From: a virus | Lineage: Duplodnaviria; Caudoviricetes | IMG/VR virus record: IMGVR_UViG_3300020576_003495 | Coordinates: 1-64,000 of that record | Direction: 5' to 3' (one strand) | DNA: 64,000 nucleotides | Translations under genes and position numbers: made by a program | Part shown: piece by piece, positions 21,047-27,854 of the stretch | Position numbering within the stretch: the first letter of the stretch is position 1 | Layout: the number at the start of each line of letters is the position of its first letter | Notes under the pieces: model-generated | Database searches by the model: none | What the model was told of the DNA's origin: nothing | Seen by the model: the letters and a program-made list of their open reading frames with translations, nothing else

Positions 21047-21579
21047 GAAAAGAATTCAACGATGAAATAACTTCGCTGGCTGATGTTCTTCAGATTACCG
21101 TGGACATGCATTCGCGTGATAATAGCACTTTGCTCACTGGTGGACGGCTGTTTAAACTCCCTCTAAGCAGTGCTGCGGGTGAAGACGCTGACTTGCATGT
21201 ACGCGCTAAAATAGAAGGTTCCTTTGTCGCAGAAGGGAGTGCAGCGGTGCTGGTGCATCTTAAAGGGCGGCTGTTCGTCTACCTGAGTTGTACCAAGGAA
21301 GATAAGTCTTCCTCTTACGGGGATTGTTTGCTAGACTTGCGCATTCTTGACGCGGGTAAAGGGGGCGTCAGGATGCTGCGGATAGCGGCACACGATGTTA
21401 GCATCGGCATAGCACGAAAACTATTAAAGCCTTACACCAAAGCTGTATTTAAAAAAACCACCAAAGACGTTCAATGGAAGGCTGTGGATGGGAAAGCTTA
21501 TACTGTGGTCAAAGGGAATAGACCCCAACCAGTCAAAGATGTTGCCGCCTCTGTTGAAGGGAACGGGTGTAACGTGTAG
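21043..21579 (+). CDS. phage hypothetical protein
   Basis: 178 aa, ACGGAG RBS. Confidence 0.7.
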   Translation: MRKEFNDEITSLADVLQITVDMHSRDNSTLLTGGRLFKLPLSSAAGEDADLHVRAKIEGSFVAEGSAAVLVHLKGRLFVYLSCTKEDKSSSYGDCLLDLRILDAGKGGVRMLRIAAHDVSIGIARKLLKPYTKAVFKKTTKDVQWKAVDGKAYTVVKGNRPQPVKDVAASVEGNGCNV

Positions 21580-24500
21580 GAACATCGGATTCAAGGAAGG
21601 GGAACTTCCTGAGTCGGCTGTGGGTGATGTAGTTATAGCATTAGGAAATCACCCCCTAGATGAGCTAAAAAAGCAAGGCATCGTCCCCAAGAACCGAACG
21701 ATAGGTTCAATGCGCGGTGTAGAAAAGGCGCTCCCATCGGGGGCGTCTTTGTTCGTCTCGTATTCCTTCAGTATCAGGTCAGTTGACTACTCCCTGTCGA
21801 TTGACTTGTGCGGGGACATAAAACTTGCGGTAAGAAAGCTGCTTACAGGGAGTGTCAAGCCCCCCGCTTTGGATTTCCAGTGGGTGCAGGACTTAACGGG
21901 CGTGATAGAGCAGCTAGACGCCTTGGTAGCGTCAAAAAAGACTATGGTGGACGTAGCAATAGACCTTGAAACCACGGGTCTGGTTGCGTATGACAAGTCC
22001 ACATGGATTGTCACCTTTCAAATCTCGCTGGATACCAAATCATCCCGCGTCATCCATTTCGATCAAGACTTTCAACCCAGAAACCCGAAGGGCGCGGCTA
22101 CGTGCCGTGAAGAACTAATCTGGCTTCAAGTCAACTACATCCTTACTCACCCCCAAGTTTCGATGAAGGGGGCGAACCTAAAGTACGATCTAAACTGGCT
22201 GCACGAGAAGTGGGGGATTCACTGCACCAACTTCAAGATGGACACCCTGTTGGTGGGGAGTCTGCTGGACGAAAACCGTTCTAATAGTTTGAAAACGCAC
22301 GCTCACGTTTACACGATCTACGGGGGGTATGAACTAGAGCTAAACCAGAACTACGACATAGCACGCCCCCAAGACGTTCCGCCTGATGTTCTTCTTCCGT
22401 ACTGCGGATACGATACGACAGTCTGCCTAGAAGCTGCGGAGAAGATGCGGCACGAGCTAGTTACTTACCGCTACCCTGCAACCTTAGACGGGGTGGGTGA
22501 TGTGCACGACCTTCCCATGTTGGCTAACTTTTACATAAAAATCCTGCACCCTGCCGCACGGGCGTATGAAGAAGTTGAGCAAGTCGGTGTTCTGGTCGAC
22601 ACGGTTTATTATAATAAATTCAAGCGTGAGCTACAGGCTGACACAAAAAACAACGCTGTACGTGCCCTAGCCATGCTGCCGGGGAGAATAAAAGCCAAGT
22701 ACAGAGACAACTTGGACTTGTCCCGAGCGGCTATGTTGGGGTGCTTCTTCTTTTCAAAATTGGGCATGAAGTTAAAGCCCGTAATGTTTACCCCGAAGCC
22801 CGACAAAAAGACAGGACTACCCAAACCATCAACGGCGATGGAACACTTCTTGAAGTTCGAGAAGAATCCTGTTGCTGCACCCTTCATCAAAGTGGTGAAA
22901 GAGTACAAGGACATTTCAAAAACCCTGAGCACTTACGTTGTGGGGTTCATGAAGCATCTTCGGTATGACGACCGTTTTCATGCAGGGTATTCATTGTATC
23001 GGGGTGCGTTGGAAAGCGATGAGCGTGACGCTGGTGCTGTATGCTTTCCTTCTGGTGAGCTAATACTAACCAATCGCGGTTACTTGCCTATTGAAGACGT
23101 AAAGATCAATGACTTAGTTATCTCTCACACAGGGGAACCGAAAGCTGTTTTTGATTTTATACCCAACGGTATTAAGCCGATTAAAAAGGTAACTCTGTCT
23201 AACGGTTTGTCGCTACGGACGACGAATAACCACCCCTACCTTTCTAATGGTGCGTGGGTTAATGCCGAAGATTTGAAAGTCGGGGACTCCGTTACTGTCC
23301 ATTCAGACGTTGAGGTATGGAAGCCCGTTCCTGATTGGGGCTACTCAGTGTCTAGTTGGGGGCGCGTCAAGTCACACTACAGCGGTAAGATTATAAAGGC
23401 GCATCAGAAGGGTAAGTGGGGGCATTTAAAAGTTCAATTTGCGCGGAACGGTTCTCAGGTCAGGGGAGAAGACCGCAGAGATTTTTCTCTGCATAGATTA
23501 GTGGCGTTAGCCTTCATACCAAACCCCGAAGGACATACCGAAGTTATGCACTTGAACGGCATTGCTTGGGATAACACGGTTGGAAATCTAGCTTGGGGTT
23601 CTGGGAAAACCAATCGTGACGATGCTTCGCAGCAAGGGCGGCTTAATAAGACACGCGGATCACAGGCAAAACTAACATGGGAGTCTGTGCAGCTAATTCG
23701 TGCGTCAACATTAAGCGACGGTGTTCTTGGCAAGATGCTTGGTGTGGCTAGGGAAAGTGTGCGTGACGCCAGAACAGGCAAACGGTGGAATAAAGACCCG
23801 CAATGGACGTACCCCAATAATTTTTATGAAGCATCCGTTGTTTGCATTGAAGACCAAGAGCCTGAGCCTACCTTTGGTGTTTCAGTGGCGGATAACTACT
23901 CGCATGTGTCGGGGGGCGTGGTAACGCACAACACAGGCCGCATCTCAATCACAGACCCGGCGCTTCAATGTTTAGAAGGTAGCACTACAGTCTTGACCGA
24001 AAAGGGAGAACACACTATACTCTCTGTGGTTCAGGGCGTAGAGCGCGGGGAAGGATTTACGGTACTAACCCATACTGGTGAGTGGAAGCCCGTGATTGGT
24101 GCTTATCGTAACGGTGTACAACCGTTATTGCGGATTACCACTAAATCAGGGGCAACTGTTGAATGCACAACTAATCACCCGTGGTTAACTGATATTGGGT
24201 TTGTTAAAGCCGACAAACTAGAAGTTGGGGCTTCGGTGTGGAGATACTATGAAGAAGCAGCGCGTGGTGGCGGGGATGAAAATAGGGCGTTGGACAGTCG
24301 TGCAGGACTTGGGTACGATTCTGGACGGCCATCGGAGATACGTCTGCCAGTGCGAATGTGGAACCATTCGGGAGCTTCGGGCGGGGTCACTGACTGTAAC
24401 GACTCCGAGCATGTCTTGTGGTTGTTACAGGCGGGACAGGCTAACAACACATGGTCACAACCGCAGAGGGAAGACATCATCTACCTATTGGTCATGGCAG

Positions 24501-27013
24501 CACATGCTGTCCAGATGTTACAACCCGAACGACAAAGACTACAAGGACTATGGGGGGAGAGGGATCATAGTCTGTTCTTCTTGGAAAGAGTCATTCGAGA
24601 TATTTCTGAAAGACATGGGGGAGAAGCCACAGAAGAAATCATTAGACAGGTTGGATACGAATGGGAATTACAGCTTAGACAATTGCAGGTGGGCGACAGA
24701 TTCGGAACAGGCGCGGAATCGCAGGGCCAGTGTCTACATCGAATTTATGGGGGAGAGAAAGCACCTAATCGAGTGGGCTGTTCAGATGAACATGAAACCA
24801 GCTACGTTAGCCGCGAGGCTGCGGAGAGGGTTGAACCCGACAGTAGCCCTTACCATGCCTGTCAAGCCTTGGTGGGGGGATTCAGTAAAGACTGCATCGT
24901 AAGCATTGAAGCCATAACACCAGAAGAAACTTTTGATTTAACTATCGCGGGTAGCCATTCATTCATTGCTAACGGGATGGTAGTGCACAATACAGTGCCC
25001 AAGAAGACGAAGTGGGCAAAGCCGTTACGCAGGGCGTATATTGCCCCACCCGGATTTGTGGTGTGCAATATCGACTACGGGCAAGGGGAATTACGCATAG
25101 CCGCAGATTTAAGCGGTGACCCTGTGATGTTGAACGCCTATGCCAACGACCTTGACTTGCATGCGGTTACGGGGGCGGGTCTTGCCAAGATTGATTTTGA
25201 AACGTTCATGTCCTACAAAGACAATGAAAACCCCGCCCTAGCTAAGATTTACGAGGATAAGCGTCAGGCGGCAAAGGGAGCTAACTTCGGCTTGGCTTTA
25301 CCTTCAAATAGTGTTTGCTTAACTAGCAATGGCAATATTAAAATCCAAGACGTAGAAGCACACCATAAACTGTGGGACGGATTGGAGTGGGTTAATCATG
25401 ACGGTATTATTCATCAAGGGTGGTTCGAAGTCTTTGAATGGGACGGAGTTAGCGCAACACCAAACCATAACGTCTGGACAGAAGACGGAAGAAAAATCGA
25501 ATTGCAGCAAGCCGCTAAAGAAGGTGCCAAGCTTGCAAGAACTGCAAGCGTTTCTGGAAAGCCGATCCTTCGGTACGATGACGTTAGCAAAGGGGGAGTC
25601 TCCACGGTTCTATTCGGACATAGTGCGAATGGATTGCTCTCTGTGCGGAACCTTTCATCAAGTTCGAGCAAGGGACTTATACTTGGGGCATACCCTTGGT
25701 GGGAAATGTGCAAGAAGGGACAAGTATCACGGAGACAAACGCGCCCAAGTTTTAGGGGCACGTTACGACTGTATGGTGCAGCGTTGCAACAGAGATACAC
25801 ACAAGCAGTCAAAAGACTACAAAGGGAAGGGAATAAAGTGCTTGTTCGAATCACGAGAGCATTTTATTCGTTGGGCGTTGGAAACATTCCCTGTGGGGAG
25901 TTACAAGGGTTTGGAGTTCGACAGGATAGACAACAAAGGACACTACTCACCAGAAAATCTTCGATTAGTCTCAAGTTCAGAGAACCATCGCAATTTGGAT
26001 CACAACGTCTTCCTGACGTATCAAGGCGTGAAGATGTTTTGGGCGGATTGGAAAAGTCCTTACCATCCCCGAAGAACACAAGCGTTTGCCAAAGCGGGTT
26101 TAACGGGAGGGCAGATAATTCAGCGAGCCAAGGATTCAATCGCCAAGAAGTGCAAAAATTGGAGAGTGTTGCAACAACGCCTAGAGACTCTTGGTTATGC
26201 GCCGACTACGGGGATAACGACACCTACGTTTACTTTTATGGGGATCGTGACCCCGTGGAAAGAATGGAAAAGCCCTTACAGCTTGGAGAAGACGAGAGAA
26301 CTGGTGTACGCGGGGTTGTCAGGGGAACAGATTATCGAGCGATGCAAGAACGTAATCGCAAAGAAGCAGAAGAATTACGAAGCCTTGGCTTTAAAACTGA
26401 AAGAGTTAGGGTATATGATATTCTGAACGCTGGCCCCCGCCGAAGATTCACTTGCTCGGGTGTTCTTGTGTCAAACTGCTACGGCATGGGCGCAGAGGGT
26501 TACAGGGACTATGCAGAGATAGCCTACAGGCACGTTATGACCTTGGAAGAGGCTACAATTAACCGTGATTTATTTTTCGAAACTTATAAATACCTTATCC
26601 CATGGCACGATAGGTACAAGGACTTCGCCAAGAAGTACGGCTACACGCACTCCCCGCTAGGTCGAATTAGGCATTTACCGTTGTTGAATAGCTCAGACAA
26701 GCAGGTAGCGTCCAAGGAACTGCGTAGAGCAGTCAACTCGCCCGTGCAAGGCTGCTTGTCTGACATGTCTTTGTGGGCAACATCAATTATGCATCGTGAA
26801 GGCTTGACAAAGAAAGCCCCGGTGGTGATGATGTGTCATGATGCGTTGGTGTTTTATCTTCCCGAAGACAACGTGGAGTATTACGCGAAGCGGTACAAAG
26901 AGATTATGGAGAATCTTCCCTTTGAACAAGTGCATTGGAAACCGAAGGTGAAGTTTTCCTGTGATGTGGAAATTGGCCCCTCGTGGTCTGCGCTCACCAA
27001 GCTTAAGTTATAA
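21488..27013 (+). CDS. polA: family A DNA polymerase with N-terminal UDG-like domain, 3'-5' exonuclease and three inteins
   Basis: DLETTGL, ANLKYD (exo); TGRIS..P.LQ, motif A IDYGQGELR, motif B RQAAKGANFGL/CYG, NSPVQG, motif C HD. Confidence 0.95.
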   Translation: MGKLILWSKGIDPNQSKMLPPLLKGTGVTCRNIGFKEGELPESAVGDVVIALGNHPLDELKKQGIVPKNRTIGSMRGVEKALPSGASLFVSYSFSIRSVDYSLSIDLCGDIKLAVRKLLTGSVKPPALDFQWVQDLTGVIEQLDALVASKKTMVDVAIDLETTGLVAYDKSTWIVTFQISLDTKSSRVIHFDQDFQPRNPKGAATCREELIWLQVNYILTHPQVSMKGANLKYDLNWLHEKWGIHCTNFKMDTLLVGSLLDENRSNSLKTHAHVYTIYGGYELELNQNYDIARPQDVPPDVLLPYCGYDTTVCLEAAEKMRHELVTYRYPATLDGVGDVHDLPMLANFYIKILHPAARAYEEVEQVGVLVDTVYYNKFKRELQADTKNNAVRALAMLPGRIKAKYRDNLDLSRAAMLGCFFFSKLGMKLKPVMFTPKPDKKTGLPKPSTAMEHFLKFEKNPVAAPFIKVVKEYKDISKTLSTYVVGFMKHLRYDDRFHAGYSLYRGALESDERDAGAVCFPSGELILTNRGYLPIEDVKINDLVISHTGEPKAVFDFIPNGIKPIKKVTLSNGLSLRTTNNHPYLSNGAWVNAEDLKVGDSVTVHSDVEVWKPVPDWGYSVSSWGRVKSHYSGKIIKAHQKGKWGHLKVQFARNGSQVRGEDRRDFSLHRLVALAFIPNPEGHTEVMHLNGIAWDNTVGNLAWGSGKTNRDDASQQGRLNKTRGSQAKLTWESVQLIRASTLSDGVLGKMLGVARESVRDARTGKRWNKDPQWTYPNNFYEASVVCIEDQEPEPTFGVSVADNYSHVSGGVVTHNTGRISITDPALQCLEGSTTVLTEKGEHTILSVVQGVERGEGFTVLTHTGEWKPVIGAYRNGVQPLLRITTKSGATVECTTNHPWLTDIGFVKADKLEVGASVWRYYEEAARGGGDENRALDSRAGLGYDSGRPSEIRLPVRMWNHSGASGGVTDCNDSEHVLWLLQAGQANNTWSQPQREDIIYLLVMAAHAVQMLQPERQRLQGLWGERDHSLFFLERVIRDISERHGGEATEEIIRQVGYEWELQLRQLQVGDRFGTGAESQGQCLHRIYGGEKAPNRVGCSDEHETSYVSREAAERVEPDSSPYHACQALVGGFSKDCIVSIEAITPEETFDLTIAGSHSFIANGMVVHNTVPKKTKWAKPLRRAYIAPPGFVVCNIDYGQGELRIAADLSGDPVMLNAYANDLDLHAVTGAGLAKIDFETFMSYKDNENPALAKIYEDKRQAAKGANFGLALPSNSVCLTSNGNIKIQDVEAHHKLWDGLEWVNHDGIIHQGWFEVFEWDGVSATPNHNVWTEDGRKIELQQAAKEGAKLARTASVSGKPILRYDDVSKGGVSTVLFGHSANGLLSVRNLSSSSSKGLILGAYPWWEMCKKGQVSRRQTRPSFRGTLRLYGAALQQRYTQAVKRLQREGNKVLVRITRAFYSLGVGNIPCGELQGFGVRQDRQQRTLLTRKSSISLKFREPSQFGSQRLPDVSRREDVLGGLEKSLPSPKNTSVCQSGFNGRADNSASQGFNRQEVQKLESVATTPRDSWLCADYGDNDTYVYFYGDRDPVERMEKPLQLGEDERTGVRGVVRGTDYRAMQERNRKEAEELRSLGFKTERVRVYDILNAGPRRRFTCSGVLVSNCYGMGAEGYRDYAEIAYRHVMTLEEATINRDLFFETYKYLIPWHDRYKDFAKKYGYTHSPLGRIRHLPLLNSSDKQVASKELRRAVNSPVQGCLSDMSLWATSIMHREGLTKKAPVVMMCHDALVFYLPEDNVEYYAKRYKEIMENLPFEQVHWKPKVKFSCDVEIGPSWSALTKLKL
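23042..23932 (+). mobile_element. intein 1 (297 aa) with in-frame NUMOD4/HNH endonuclease
   Basis: CFPSGELILT...TNNHP...VVTHN/T; EVWKPVP..YSVSSWGRVKS, HRLVALAFIPNP..HLNG..DN. Confidence 0.93.
23969..24991 (+). mobile_element. intein 2 (341 aa) with endonuclease encoded in the +1 frame
   Basis: CLEGSTTVLT..TTNHPW...TFDLTIAGSHSFIANGMVVHN/T. Confidence 0.93.
24249..24902 (+). CDS. HNH endonuclease nested out of frame in intein 2
   Basis: GGAG at 24240-24243 before ATG; IGRWTVV..CQCECG..SCGC..SWQHMLSRC..YGGRGI.VC..DMGEKP..LDRLDTNGNYSLDNCRWAT. Confidence 0.9.
   Translation: MKKQRVVAGMKIGRWTVVQDLGTILDGHRRYVCQCECGTIRELRAGSLTVTTPSMSCGCYRRDRLTTHGHNRRGKTSSTYWSWQHMLSRCYNPNDKDYKDYGGRGIIVCSSWKESFEIFLKDMGEKPQKKSLDRLDTNGNYSLDNCRWATDSEQARNRRASVYIEFMGERKHLIEWAVQMNMKPATLAARLRRGLNPTVALTMPVKPWWGDSVKTAS
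25295..26476 (+). mobile_element. intein 3 (394 aa), Ala1/Cys+1 KlbA-like (class 2), endonuclease in the +1 frame
   Basis: ALPSNSVCLT..ATPNHNVW...VYDILNAGPRRRFTCSGVLVSN/C; excision restores KGANFGL-CYGMG. Confidence 0.88.
25398..26426 (+). CDS. HNH endonuclease nested out of frame in intein 3 (true start probably 25524-25578)
   Basis: CSLCG, YDCMVQRC..DYKGKGIKC..FDRIDNKGHYSPENLRLV; duplicated C-terminal WKSPY..AGL.G.QII.R repeats. Confidence 0.85.
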   Translation: MTVLFIKGGSKSLNGTELAQHQTITSGQKTEEKSNCSKPLKKVPSLQELQAFLESRSFGTMTLAKGESPRFYSDIVRMDCSLCGTFHQVRARDLYLGHTLGGKCARRDKYHGDKRAQVLGARYDCMVQRCNRDTHKQSKDYKGKGIKCLFESREHFIRWALETFPVGSYKGLEFDRIDNKGHYSPENLRLVSSSENHRNLDHNVFLTYQGVKMFWADWKSPYHPRRTQAFAKAGLTGGQIIQRAKDSIAKKCKNWRVLQQRLETLGYAPTTGITTPTFTFMGIVTPWKEWKSPYSLEKTRELVYAGLSGEQIIERCKNVIAKKQKNYEALALKLKELGYMIF

Positions 27014-27044: not shown

Positions 27045-27854
27045 ATGACAACTAAAAAAGACAATGTTATGTTATACACACACAGTAGGATAACAGATGA
27101 CGTTGTGTTTTATGTGGGTATCGGTGCGCGTGGTCGCCCTTGGAGTGTCTACGCCAGAAACCCGCATTGGCACCGTACCGTAGCAAAGCATGGCTACATG
27201 GTCAACATATTGCAAAGTGGTTTGAGTTGGGGAGATGCGTGTAAAAAAGAGAAGCAGCTTATTGCCGAGTATCGAACTGTAAGCGGCAAGGTTTTAACAA
27301 ATTTAACGGAAGGCGGCGAGGGTGCTTACGGATTAATCCACTCTGACGCTACACGAAATAAACTCAGGGAATCGGCAAAGTACCGTAAGCCTGTTTCTCA
27401 GGCCACAAGGGATAAACTACGTAAGTGTTTTTCCGCTGTTTCTCTTAAGAACTTATTAGATTGCCACGCCAGAAACAAGGGTAAAAAGTTGCCTGATGAA
27501 GTCAGGGCTAAGATTAGTTTAGCTCAAAAAGGGAGGGTTACTACAGACGAAACAAAAGCCAAATTACGTGCTGCTAACTTAGGGAAGGCACATAGCCCGT
27601 CTGTGAAAGCTAAAATCAGTGAGTCACATAAAAAACTAGAGTTCACAGCCGAACGAAAAGCGCAGCTTGACGCGGCTAGGGCGGCACGCCCACCAGTTTC
27701 AGAAGAAACACGTGAAAAGTTGAGGATTTCTCATTTAGCGTACTACGCTAAACGCAGGGATGAAAATAAATCATTGACCCTTACAGAAGAGCAAAAAGCG
27801 AGGAAGCGTGCTAGCACTCTAAGAAATAGGGAAAAAGCTAAAGGTGTGACATGA
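27045..27854 (+). CDS. GIY-YIG homing endonuclease with NUMOD3 repeats
   Basis: LYTHSR..FYVGIG..R, LTNLTEGGEG, repeated (S/T)xETxxK(L/I)(R/S). Confidence 0.85.
   Translation: MTTKKDNVMLYTHSRITDDVVFYVGIGARGRPWSVYARNPHWHRTVAKHGYMVNILQSGLSWGDACKKEKQLIAEYRTVSGKVLTNLTEGGEGAYGLIHSDATRNKLRESAKYRKPVSQATRDKLRKCFSAVSLKNLLDCHARNKGKKLPDEVRAKISLAQKGRVTTDETKAKLRAANLGKAHSPSVKAKISESHKKLEFTAERKAQLDAARAARPPVSEETREKLRISHLAYYAKRRDENKSLTLTEEQKARKRASTLRNREKAKGVT

Follow-up and report, generated by a model that had tools for sequence, protein, structure and literature searches.

Can an intein that begins with alanine still splice, and how did such an intein come to share its DNA with a second gene read in another frame? 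These questions are raised by the third of three inteins in polA, a family A DNA polymerase gene of a phage (Duplodnaviria; Caudoviricetes) in the IMG/VR record IMGVR_UViG_3300020576_003495. The record is a phage genome of 178,170 bp with a completeness estimate of 91%, and the window analyzed here is its first 64 kb (64,000 nucleotides). The polA open reading frame (ORF) lies at 21488..27013 on the + strand and has 1841 codons (the gene callers start it at ATG 21539), and Pfam recognizes both a 3'-5' exonuclease domain and a DNA_pol_A domain in its product. The intein in question, hereafter intein 3, occupies 25295..26476 (+ strand, frame 0, 394 aa, from Ala1 to Ser393-Asn394) in polymerase motif B. 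To judge from its residues, it carries the full sequence signature of class 2 inteins, and it contains a gene for an HNH-like homing endonuclease in the +1 frame. Taking the account as a whole, we consider it rather probable that intein 3 is a mobile motif B intein that uses the class 2 route, carries a separate nuclease gene in the +1 frame and arrived in polA ready-made.

We first define the junctions, on which the position of Ala1 depends. In frame 0, the gene reads ...KGANFGL / ALPSNSVCLT ... TPNH ... VYDILNAGPRRRFTCSGVLVSN / CYGMG. This agrees with the sequence-only reading of the locus, which had placed an intein with an ALPSN start and a VSN/C end at the same positions of motif B and had predicted that its excision restores KGANFGL-CYGMG. 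The homologue P0004, whose exteins are 85% identical, contains only intein 1 and reads KGANFGL-V-YGMG at motif B. Therefore, the insert is exactly Ala1 to Asn394, and the Val of the intein-free allele has been replaced by Cys+1, the first C-extein residue (TGC, 26477..26479, + strand). The intein-free reading likewise fixes the end of the N-extein, the KGANFGL half of motif B (O-helix), at 25274..25294 on the + strand. The definition of an intein thus applies in that 394 extra residues stand exactly at the P0004 site and the Pfam DNA_pol_A domain resumes at Cys+1. The G+C content does not distinguish intein 3.

Next, we compared the residues of intein 3 with those that define the intein classes. 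Class 2 inteins require Cys+1, Thr at B:7, His at B:10 and Asp at F:4 (PMC4031507). Intein 3 has no Cys, Ser or Thr at residue 1, where the codon is GCT (25295..25297, + strand), and it has Thr B:7 and His B:10 in block B (T55-P-N-H58, 25457-25468, + strand), Asp F:4 in block F (VYDILNAG, 26411-26434, + strand), Asn G:7 at the end of block G (VLVSN, 26462-26476, + strand, ending in Ser393-Asn394) and Cys+1. T55, H58, D375, N394 and C+1 (C395) are all invariant in alignment A2 of the relatives. The tryptophan-cysteine-threonine (WCT) triplet, Trp B:12, Cys F:4 and Thr G:5, which defines class 3 and excludes class 2 (PMC2807308), is absent, the residues being Val60, Asp375 and Val392. In particular, the Asp that had been noticed in block F, and from which class 3 had been excluded, is indeed D375 at 26417-26419. 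Residue G:6, at which His is the alternative, is Ser393; Ser occurs at G:6 in all KlbA inteins (PMC4031507), and the class 2 inteins as of 2014 were all KlbA orthologues (PMC4031507). Intein 3 is not such an orthologue, since its host protein is a phage polymerase and its nearest relatives have Cys1, with 70% identity of the HINT domain to intein P0002. Thus, the description of intein 3 as KlbA-like class 2 fits its signature, but not its kinship: it is closest to Cys1 inteins, and its predicted fold is nearer to class 1. Its resemblance to KlbA appears to have arisen by convergence within a Ser-G:6 subfamily of class 1 inteins.

The fold was predicted with AlphaFold2 from a 43-sequence alignment of relatives. 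The predicted local distance difference test (pLDDT) values are 96-97 for residues 1-85 and 83-97 for residues ~345-395, and only 30-58 for the ~260 residues between them. In the structure search with this model (all against representatives), the first 32 matches are all of the HINT fold (inteins, intein-like and hedgehog domains), after which the scores drop to Z 3.4. The best match is the Mtu RecA mini-intein 2imz (Z 15.6, 111 residues at 2.0 A), and gp41-1 and NpuDnaB are also among the best. The class 2 KlbA intein 2jnq is ranked 27th with Z 9.8, compared with Z 15-16 for the class 1 mini-inteins. The ends of intein 3 are therefore predicted to form a normal HINT domain, composed of an N-terminal segment with blocks A and B (residues 1-85, 25295..25549) and a C-terminal segment with the invariant D375 and N394 (26327..26476), both on the + strand and split by a linker without a predicted fold. 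Pfam models miss the HINT domain of intein 3, and a search of PDB sequences with the profile of the intein family found nothing.

Given that Ala1 is not a nucleophile, it is conceivable that another residue takes its place, either through a junction moved to Cys8 (SV/CLTSNG) or through a class 3-like role of Cys8 or Cys387. Cys8 is indeed unusual, being Val or Ile in the relatives and common to the nearest Ala1 relative, P0008, and the sequence from Cys8 onward resembles an intein start. A junction at a nearby Cys was also what the sequence-only reading had named as a reason to give up Ala1. The intein-free reading of P0004 places the junction at Ala1, so Cys8 is not the junction; if it were, seven extra residues would remain in the motif B O-helix relative to the intein-free allele. 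Moreover, in the gap-free alignment and the model, Ala1 falls at the canonical start and residue 8 lies in a beta strand, and this residue is Val in two of the Ala1 inteins, P0010 and P0041. As for Cys387, Cys1 relatives possess it and P0041 lacks it, and a class 3-like role of either residue is opposed by the lack of the WCT triplet. We therefore regard the use of another nucleophile as highly improbable, the least probable of the explanations considered here.

How common Ala1 is, and how it arose, was examined in a census of residue 1 in 56 inteins at the same (NFG) site, taken from the best 150 database matches and thus chosen by similarity to the window. Cys1 was found in 51 of the 56, Ser1 in one (P0021) and Ala1 in four, namely the window, P0008, P0010 and P0041. 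In each of the four, Ser-Asn closes the intein and Cys+1 follows, and Pfam finds both the exonuclease and the polymerase domains in P0008, P0010 and P0041. The association between Ala1 and Ser G:6 is only suggestive, considering the small number of lineages and the way in which the sample was picked. Among the relatives from IMG/VR and GenBank, all 81 have Cys1, to which the Ala1 of the window aligns without gaps; Ala1 is absent from the HN-type relatives, and additional searches around P0041 and P0008 brought up no others that have it. Two assemblies, which differ from each other at one residue, both give the window's Ala1, and in the contig of P0041 (L146) the codon is likewise GCT and the +1 nuclease ORF intact. 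We considered and rejected a sequencing error at Ala1, given the agreement of the two assemblies and the two base changes that separate Ala from Cys. His23 (25361-25363) is a candidate co-varying residue, since all four Ala1 inteins have it, as do three of the 52 NFG-site inteins that begin with Cys1 or Ser1. The independent events number two or three, too few to set this co-variation beyond chance.

We then constructed a tree from the full-length inteins, leaving out residue 1. In it, the window and P0008 form a pair (Shimodaira-Hasegawa-like approximate likelihood ratio test, SH-aLRT, 95) within a clade of six members (97) that also contains P0010 and three Cys1 inteins, and P0041 is the sister of the Ser1 intein P0021 (SH-aLRT 96) in the other half of the tree. 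Parsimony requires three changes of residue 1 on this tree, and three again on a tree of the HINT columns, in which the row nearest to the window is the Cys1 intein P0002 (70% identity). With the full alignment, the approximately unbiased test rejects a single Ala1 clade (p 0.003); with only the HINT columns, it does not (p 0.35). These results suggest that Ala1 either arose repeatedly or persisted through deep divergence. An Ala codon (GCN) is two base changes from Cys (TGY) and one from Ser (TCN), which fits a path from Cys through Ser to Ala; Ala1 is thus plausibly a later change, via Ser1, within a Cys1 family.

Is Ala1 simply an inactivating change? If so, intein 3 would no longer splice and the polymerase gene would be dead or dying. 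Several points favor this possibility and weigh against our account. In standard class 1 inteins, a change of Cys1 to Ala stops splicing (PMC2807308), and the active-site motifs of intein 3 are the same as those of the Cys1 relatives apart from residue 1. Cys1 is the rule in the 81 relatives and in the same-site inteins, and the Ala1 lineages are all rare, consisting of singleton clusters or near-identical pairs. There is also a precedent in the candidate class 2 intein of Arthrobacter FB24, which proved to be a pseudogene (PMC3196547). On the other hand, the ORF of 1841 codons, every splicing motif and the +1 nuclease gene are all intact. Own-genome searches of the 178-kb record found one PolA and no detectable PolB or PolIII alpha, so that polA is the sole replicative polymerase detected in this 91%-complete record. 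In addition, Ala is the only non-nucleophile seen at residue 1, despite being two base changes from Cys, and its four occurrences are always accompanied by Cys+1 and full-length polymerases, at ~50% identity within the intein. A recurrent or long-lived Ala1 is difficult to square with the lethal loss of an essential gene. We therefore consider an inactive intein 3 unlikely, though less so than the use of another nucleophile.

Because residue 1 is Ala, the usual first acyl shift is impossible, and the signature shared with KlbA leads us to expect a direct attack of Cys+1 on the N-terminal amide; class 2 chemistry is the most likely splicing route of intein 3, judging from these residues. In the proposed mechanism, the ribosome would read frame 0 straight through intein 3, which it can do because this frame is kept free of stop codons. 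The thiol of Cys+1 would attack the Leu(-1)-Ala1 peptide bond directly, assisted by Thr55 and His58 of block B and Asp375 of block F, and would form a branched thioester. Asn394 would then cyclize, and an S-to-N shift would rejoin the exteins as NFGL-CYGMG. A broader statement, that these are functional class 2 inteins formed by convergence, which lost the nucleophile from Cys1 through Ser1 to Ala1, perhaps repeatedly and always in the presence of Ser-G:6 and Cys+1, has in our estimation about an even chance of being correct.

The second question concerns the other reading frame. Frame 0 of the ~260-codon linker (25550..26326, + strand) is free of stop codons and appears to be an out-of-frame reading of the nuclease gene, as indicated by its pLDDT values, a shuffle test and a switch of the wobble position in the family. 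When the +1 ORF was shuffled synonymously 20000 times, frame 0 was open in none of the shuffles (mean of 15 stops), and when frame 0 was shuffled 20000 times, the +1 ORF was again open in none (mean of 9.4 stops). The +2 frame has 29 stops across intein 3. A scan of IMG/VR with the intein alignment confirmed 234 relatives, 80 of which were fetched for the family counts. All 54 long inteins among the fetched relatives (250-317 aa) encode a nuclease homologue in the +1 frame and in no other, and approximately 20 are mini-inteins of 120-170 aa without the nuclease. The variability of codon positions was measured in 34 distinct family members of 309 aa. Position 3 of frame 0 is the most variable in codons 1-60 and 301-309, and position 1 of frame 0, which is position 3 of the nuclease frame, is the most variable in codons 91-270. 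Given that the wobble switches to the nuclease frame, purifying selection acts on the nuclease in the overlap, and frame 0 is just kept open. Purifying selection on the nuclease frame, the absence of which had been set as a ground for doubt, is thus indicated at the level of the family, that is, across these 34 members.

In the window, the nuclease gene extends on the + strand in the +1 frame from ATG 25398 to TGA 26424-26426 (25398..26426), with 342 codons in 356 open codons. The frame and the end in block F are as had been described, but the ORF is longer than the roughly 300 codons given then. Its TGA overlaps the Leu-Asn codons of block F. A possible ribosome-binding site, GGAG, whose function we infer from its sequence, is located 9 nt upstream of ATG 25398 (25385..25388, + strand). 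The usual nuclease ATG of the family is formed by the codons for Tyr49-Asp50 and is lost in intein 3 because residue 49 is Trp; an alternative start, TTG 25434, is found two codons before that point. Translation of the nuclease probably begins internally, at either ATG 25398 or TTG 25434. The protein would be made from the polymerase mRNA separately from the polymerase itself and would cut intein-free NFGL-V-YGMG alleles, and repair would copy in the intein together with the Cys+1 codon. Such homing is suggested by the patchy distribution of the family and the existence of P0004.

The nuclease matches PHROG 374 (E 1e-23) and PHROG 3377 (E 5e-22), both annotated as HNH endonuclease. Alignment A3 of the family shows a four-Cys zinc ribbon, a core D-R-[IL]-D ... 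Y ... N-x-R and a helical C-terminal module; the conserved core of the window copy is DRIDNKGHYSPENLR (25920..25964, + strand, +1 frame), with the family-invariant R176, Y183 and N187. Arg replaces the first His of HNH_3 in every member of the family, and is therefore a family trait rather than a sign of decay. The C-terminal module is duplicated in tandem in the window (26013-26198 and 26229-26414, + strand, +1 frame; 47% identity between the halves in BLASTP, E 9e-21), so that intein 3 has 394 aa as compared with 309-323 aa in most relatives. The inteins of P0008 and P0003 are similar in length to intein 3.

Other comparisons gave less. Against Pfam and NCBIfam the window nuclease has no match, and only one family member touches Pfam HNH_3, at E 0.003; the nuclease profile matches PDB entries weakly (PacI, E 0.12; I-HmuI, E 0.43), and the comparison of the nuclease family with the HNH_3 domain of intein 1 by hhalign was not significant. 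The protein atlas gave leads only (I-HmuI NUMOD-like, DUF723), and no close relative was found in IMG/VR with the nuclease as a single query. The nuclease part of our account is thus also open to objection. The HNH label is not secure, since it depends on the PHROG models and the Pfam and PDB matches are weak; the expression of the nuclease and its start codon are predicted from the sequence; and in the window copy Gly takes the place of the zinc ribbon's third Cys (GGKC where the family has GCxxC, 25698-25712, residues ~101-105), so that this particular nuclease may be weakened. A His four residues upstream of the Gly might stand in for the missing Cys.

Did the two-frame layout arise within polA? 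The other inteins of the gene bear on this point. Intein 2 (23969..24991, + strand; Cys1 ... His-Asn / Thr+1) has its own +1-frame nuclease ORF at 24225-24902. It had been proposed that intein 3 captured a distinct HNH nuclease out of frame independently of intein 2, so that the layout arose twice in one gene, a mini-intein resident in polA having taken up the +1 nuclease. The lack of BLAST similarity between the HINT domains of inteins 2 and 3 is in keeping with this idea, as are the existence of mini-intein relatives and the presence in the genome of free-standing nucleases of the same family that could be donors. The nucleases of inteins 2 and 3, however, are 30% identical (E 4e-14) and in the same +1 phase. 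The nuclease is HNH-like, by the PHROG matches, and belongs to one family with that of intein 2. Furthermore, the same HINT lineage, nuclease family and +1 phase occur together in all 54 long IMG/VR inteins and in P0002, P0003 and P0008, and P0003 has homologous inteins at both sites, those of intein 2 and intein 3. The same unit is also found in GenBank phages of Gram-positive hosts: a tblastn search with the nuclease matched the 'DNA polymerase' genes of Streptococcus phage Javan113 and Gardnerella phage vB_Gva_AB1, in which a homologous intein (BLASTP E 5e-22) lies at the equivalent motif B site with its nuclease ORF in the +1 frame. The joint occurrence of HINT and nuclease in these phages and in the long relatives means that the unit predates its arrival in polA. 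Independent capture within polA is therefore very unlikely, and polA appears instead to have received, on two occasions, inteins in which both reading frames were already present. The layout itself may have had one origin or several.

The family is also visible in protein databases. A phmmer search against 1.84 billion representative proteins gave 1922 matches at E <= 0.001, and many of the alignments continue across the frame-0 'junk', which is what a shared overlap would produce. In GenBank, MK448670 (L001, 2853-3779) and MW387018 (L002, 2898-3824) each have a single 'DNA polymerase' CDS (coding sequence) in which the intein is unannotated, and the overlapping +1 nuclease ORFs (L001:2998-3771 and L002:3043-3846) are unannotated as well. 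In L002, L013, L022, L044 and many others, the nuclease ORF crosses blocks F and G and stops 19-28 nt into the C-extein. The last 30-40 intein codons are therefore constrained in both frames, and they show low variability at all three codon positions.

The same HINT lineage was observed at other polymerase sites and in other host proteins. Its sites include those in loci L104, L126, L127, L178, L028, L058, L006 and L012, among others, with junctions such as ...YGGKLVEN/C, ...ERFVGK[TV]/C and ...SNKCLQF/C...HN/CNGSPY, and the hosts there may include proteins other than family A polymerases. The L028 nuclease is most similar to that of intein 2 (E 4e-31), pointing to exchange of nuclease cassettes and HINT domains. 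Free-standing genes of the same nuclease family lie at 996-1655 and 2013-2654 of the window and at ~146.3-146.9 kb of the genome (L227:1408-2022). The phage thus carries at least five copies of this family, including the two embedded in inteins in the +1 frame, and the copies could be donors or relatives of the intein cassettes.

As for the remainder of the polymerase locus, intein 1 (23042..23932, + strand; Cys1 ... His-Asn / Thr+1), which is also present in P0004, has an in-frame endonuclease with NUMOD4 and HNH_3, and Pfam recognizes PT-HINT, NUMOD4 and HNH_3 in it. Directly 3' of polA, an ORF of 269 aa (27045-27854) matches the NUMOD3 motif (E 1.9e-9), and its start looks GIY-YIG-like by eye. 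It probably encodes a further homing endonuclease of the free-standing kind, which brings the polymerase locus to three inteins plus a fourth mobile-element gene. A megablast search with the polA gene against GenBank phages gave no match.

Inteins with a separate out-of-frame endonuclease are known already, and so is the class 2 route; we know of no report that combines the two, or of either in this gene. In actinophage inteins, an EndoVII-like nuclease is encoded out of frame while the in-frame translation is open and foldless (bioRxiv 10.1101/2025.01.02.630785). The authors of that survey attribute this to the invasion of an intein by a free-standing endonuclease, and report only class 1 and class 3 inteins (bioRxiv 10.1101/2025.01.02.630785). 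Intein 3 shares with them a nuclease gene inside an intein in another frame, and an in-frame translation that is open without a fold, whereas its nuclease is HNH-like (PHROG 374) rather than EndoVII-like and in the +1 frame rather than frame 3, and its host is a family A polymerase. A cyanobacterial dnaX intein has an out-of-frame LAGLIDADG endonuclease (Phillips, DeSimone and Gogarten, bioRxiv 10.64898/2026.09.14.751524). It resembles the present family in that the overlapping nuclease ORF is under purifying selection, the intein frame is relaxed and mini-intein relatives coexist; it differs in its LAGLIDADG nuclease, its +2 frame, its bacterial clamp-loader gene and its Cys start. The 'hidden' HNH of ShiLan in phage DNA methylases (PMC11855218) is likewise out of frame in an insertion that is open in the host frame, but it has no detectable splicing domain, whereas here a complete HINT domain flanks the nuclease gene. 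The motif B inteins of Javan113 and vB_Gva_AB1 differ from intein 3 in having Cys1, His-Asn and 309 aa, and in belonging to another polymerase subfamily (KIAELA/C...HN/CGYGG). Our results widen the class of inteins with a separate overlapping endonuclease gene, adding an HNH-like family and family A polymerases, and they indicate that the two-frame layout is common, occurring in hundreds of environmental phage sequences and in GenBank phages that carry no annotation of it.

To our knowledge, class 2 splicing has been demonstrated only for archaeal KlbA inteins, the subject, reportedly, of work on class 2 by Southworth in 2000 and Johnson in 2007. The KlbA intein of Methanocaldococcus jannaschii and its archaeal orthologues (PMC4031507) share with intein 3 Ala1, Ser G:6, the C-terminal Asn, Cys+1, Thr B:7, His B:10 and Asp F:4, and also lack the WCT triplet. 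Intein 3 differs from them in its phage polymerase host, its Cys1 nearest relatives and its overlapping nuclease gene, and its splicing is a prediction. Ser1 and Ala1 also alternate outside KlbA in archaeal RFC-S inteins at insertion point b (Novikova et al. 2016, PMC4760082), which according to the authors 'might belong to class 2' (PMC4760082). Those inteins are archaeal, reside in another host protein and have no overlapping nuclease, and class 2 is a suggestion there as it is here. Why class 2 inteins, and not class 1 inteins, activate the N-terminal amide for attack by Cys+1 "remains to be fully determined" (PMC4031507, 2014). If intein 3 and its three Ala1 relatives do splice, they would constitute a second class 2 lineage, one of bacterial viruses and situated amid closely similar Cys1 inteins, and the question of class 1 versus class 2 would become a comparison of a few substitutions in natural matched pairs, such as intein 3 and a Cys1 relative with a 70% identical HINT domain. 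Thus, what is new here in relation to the known systems is the HNH-like family in an intein of a family A polymerase and, above all, a class 2 signature outside KlbA among Cys1 relatives.

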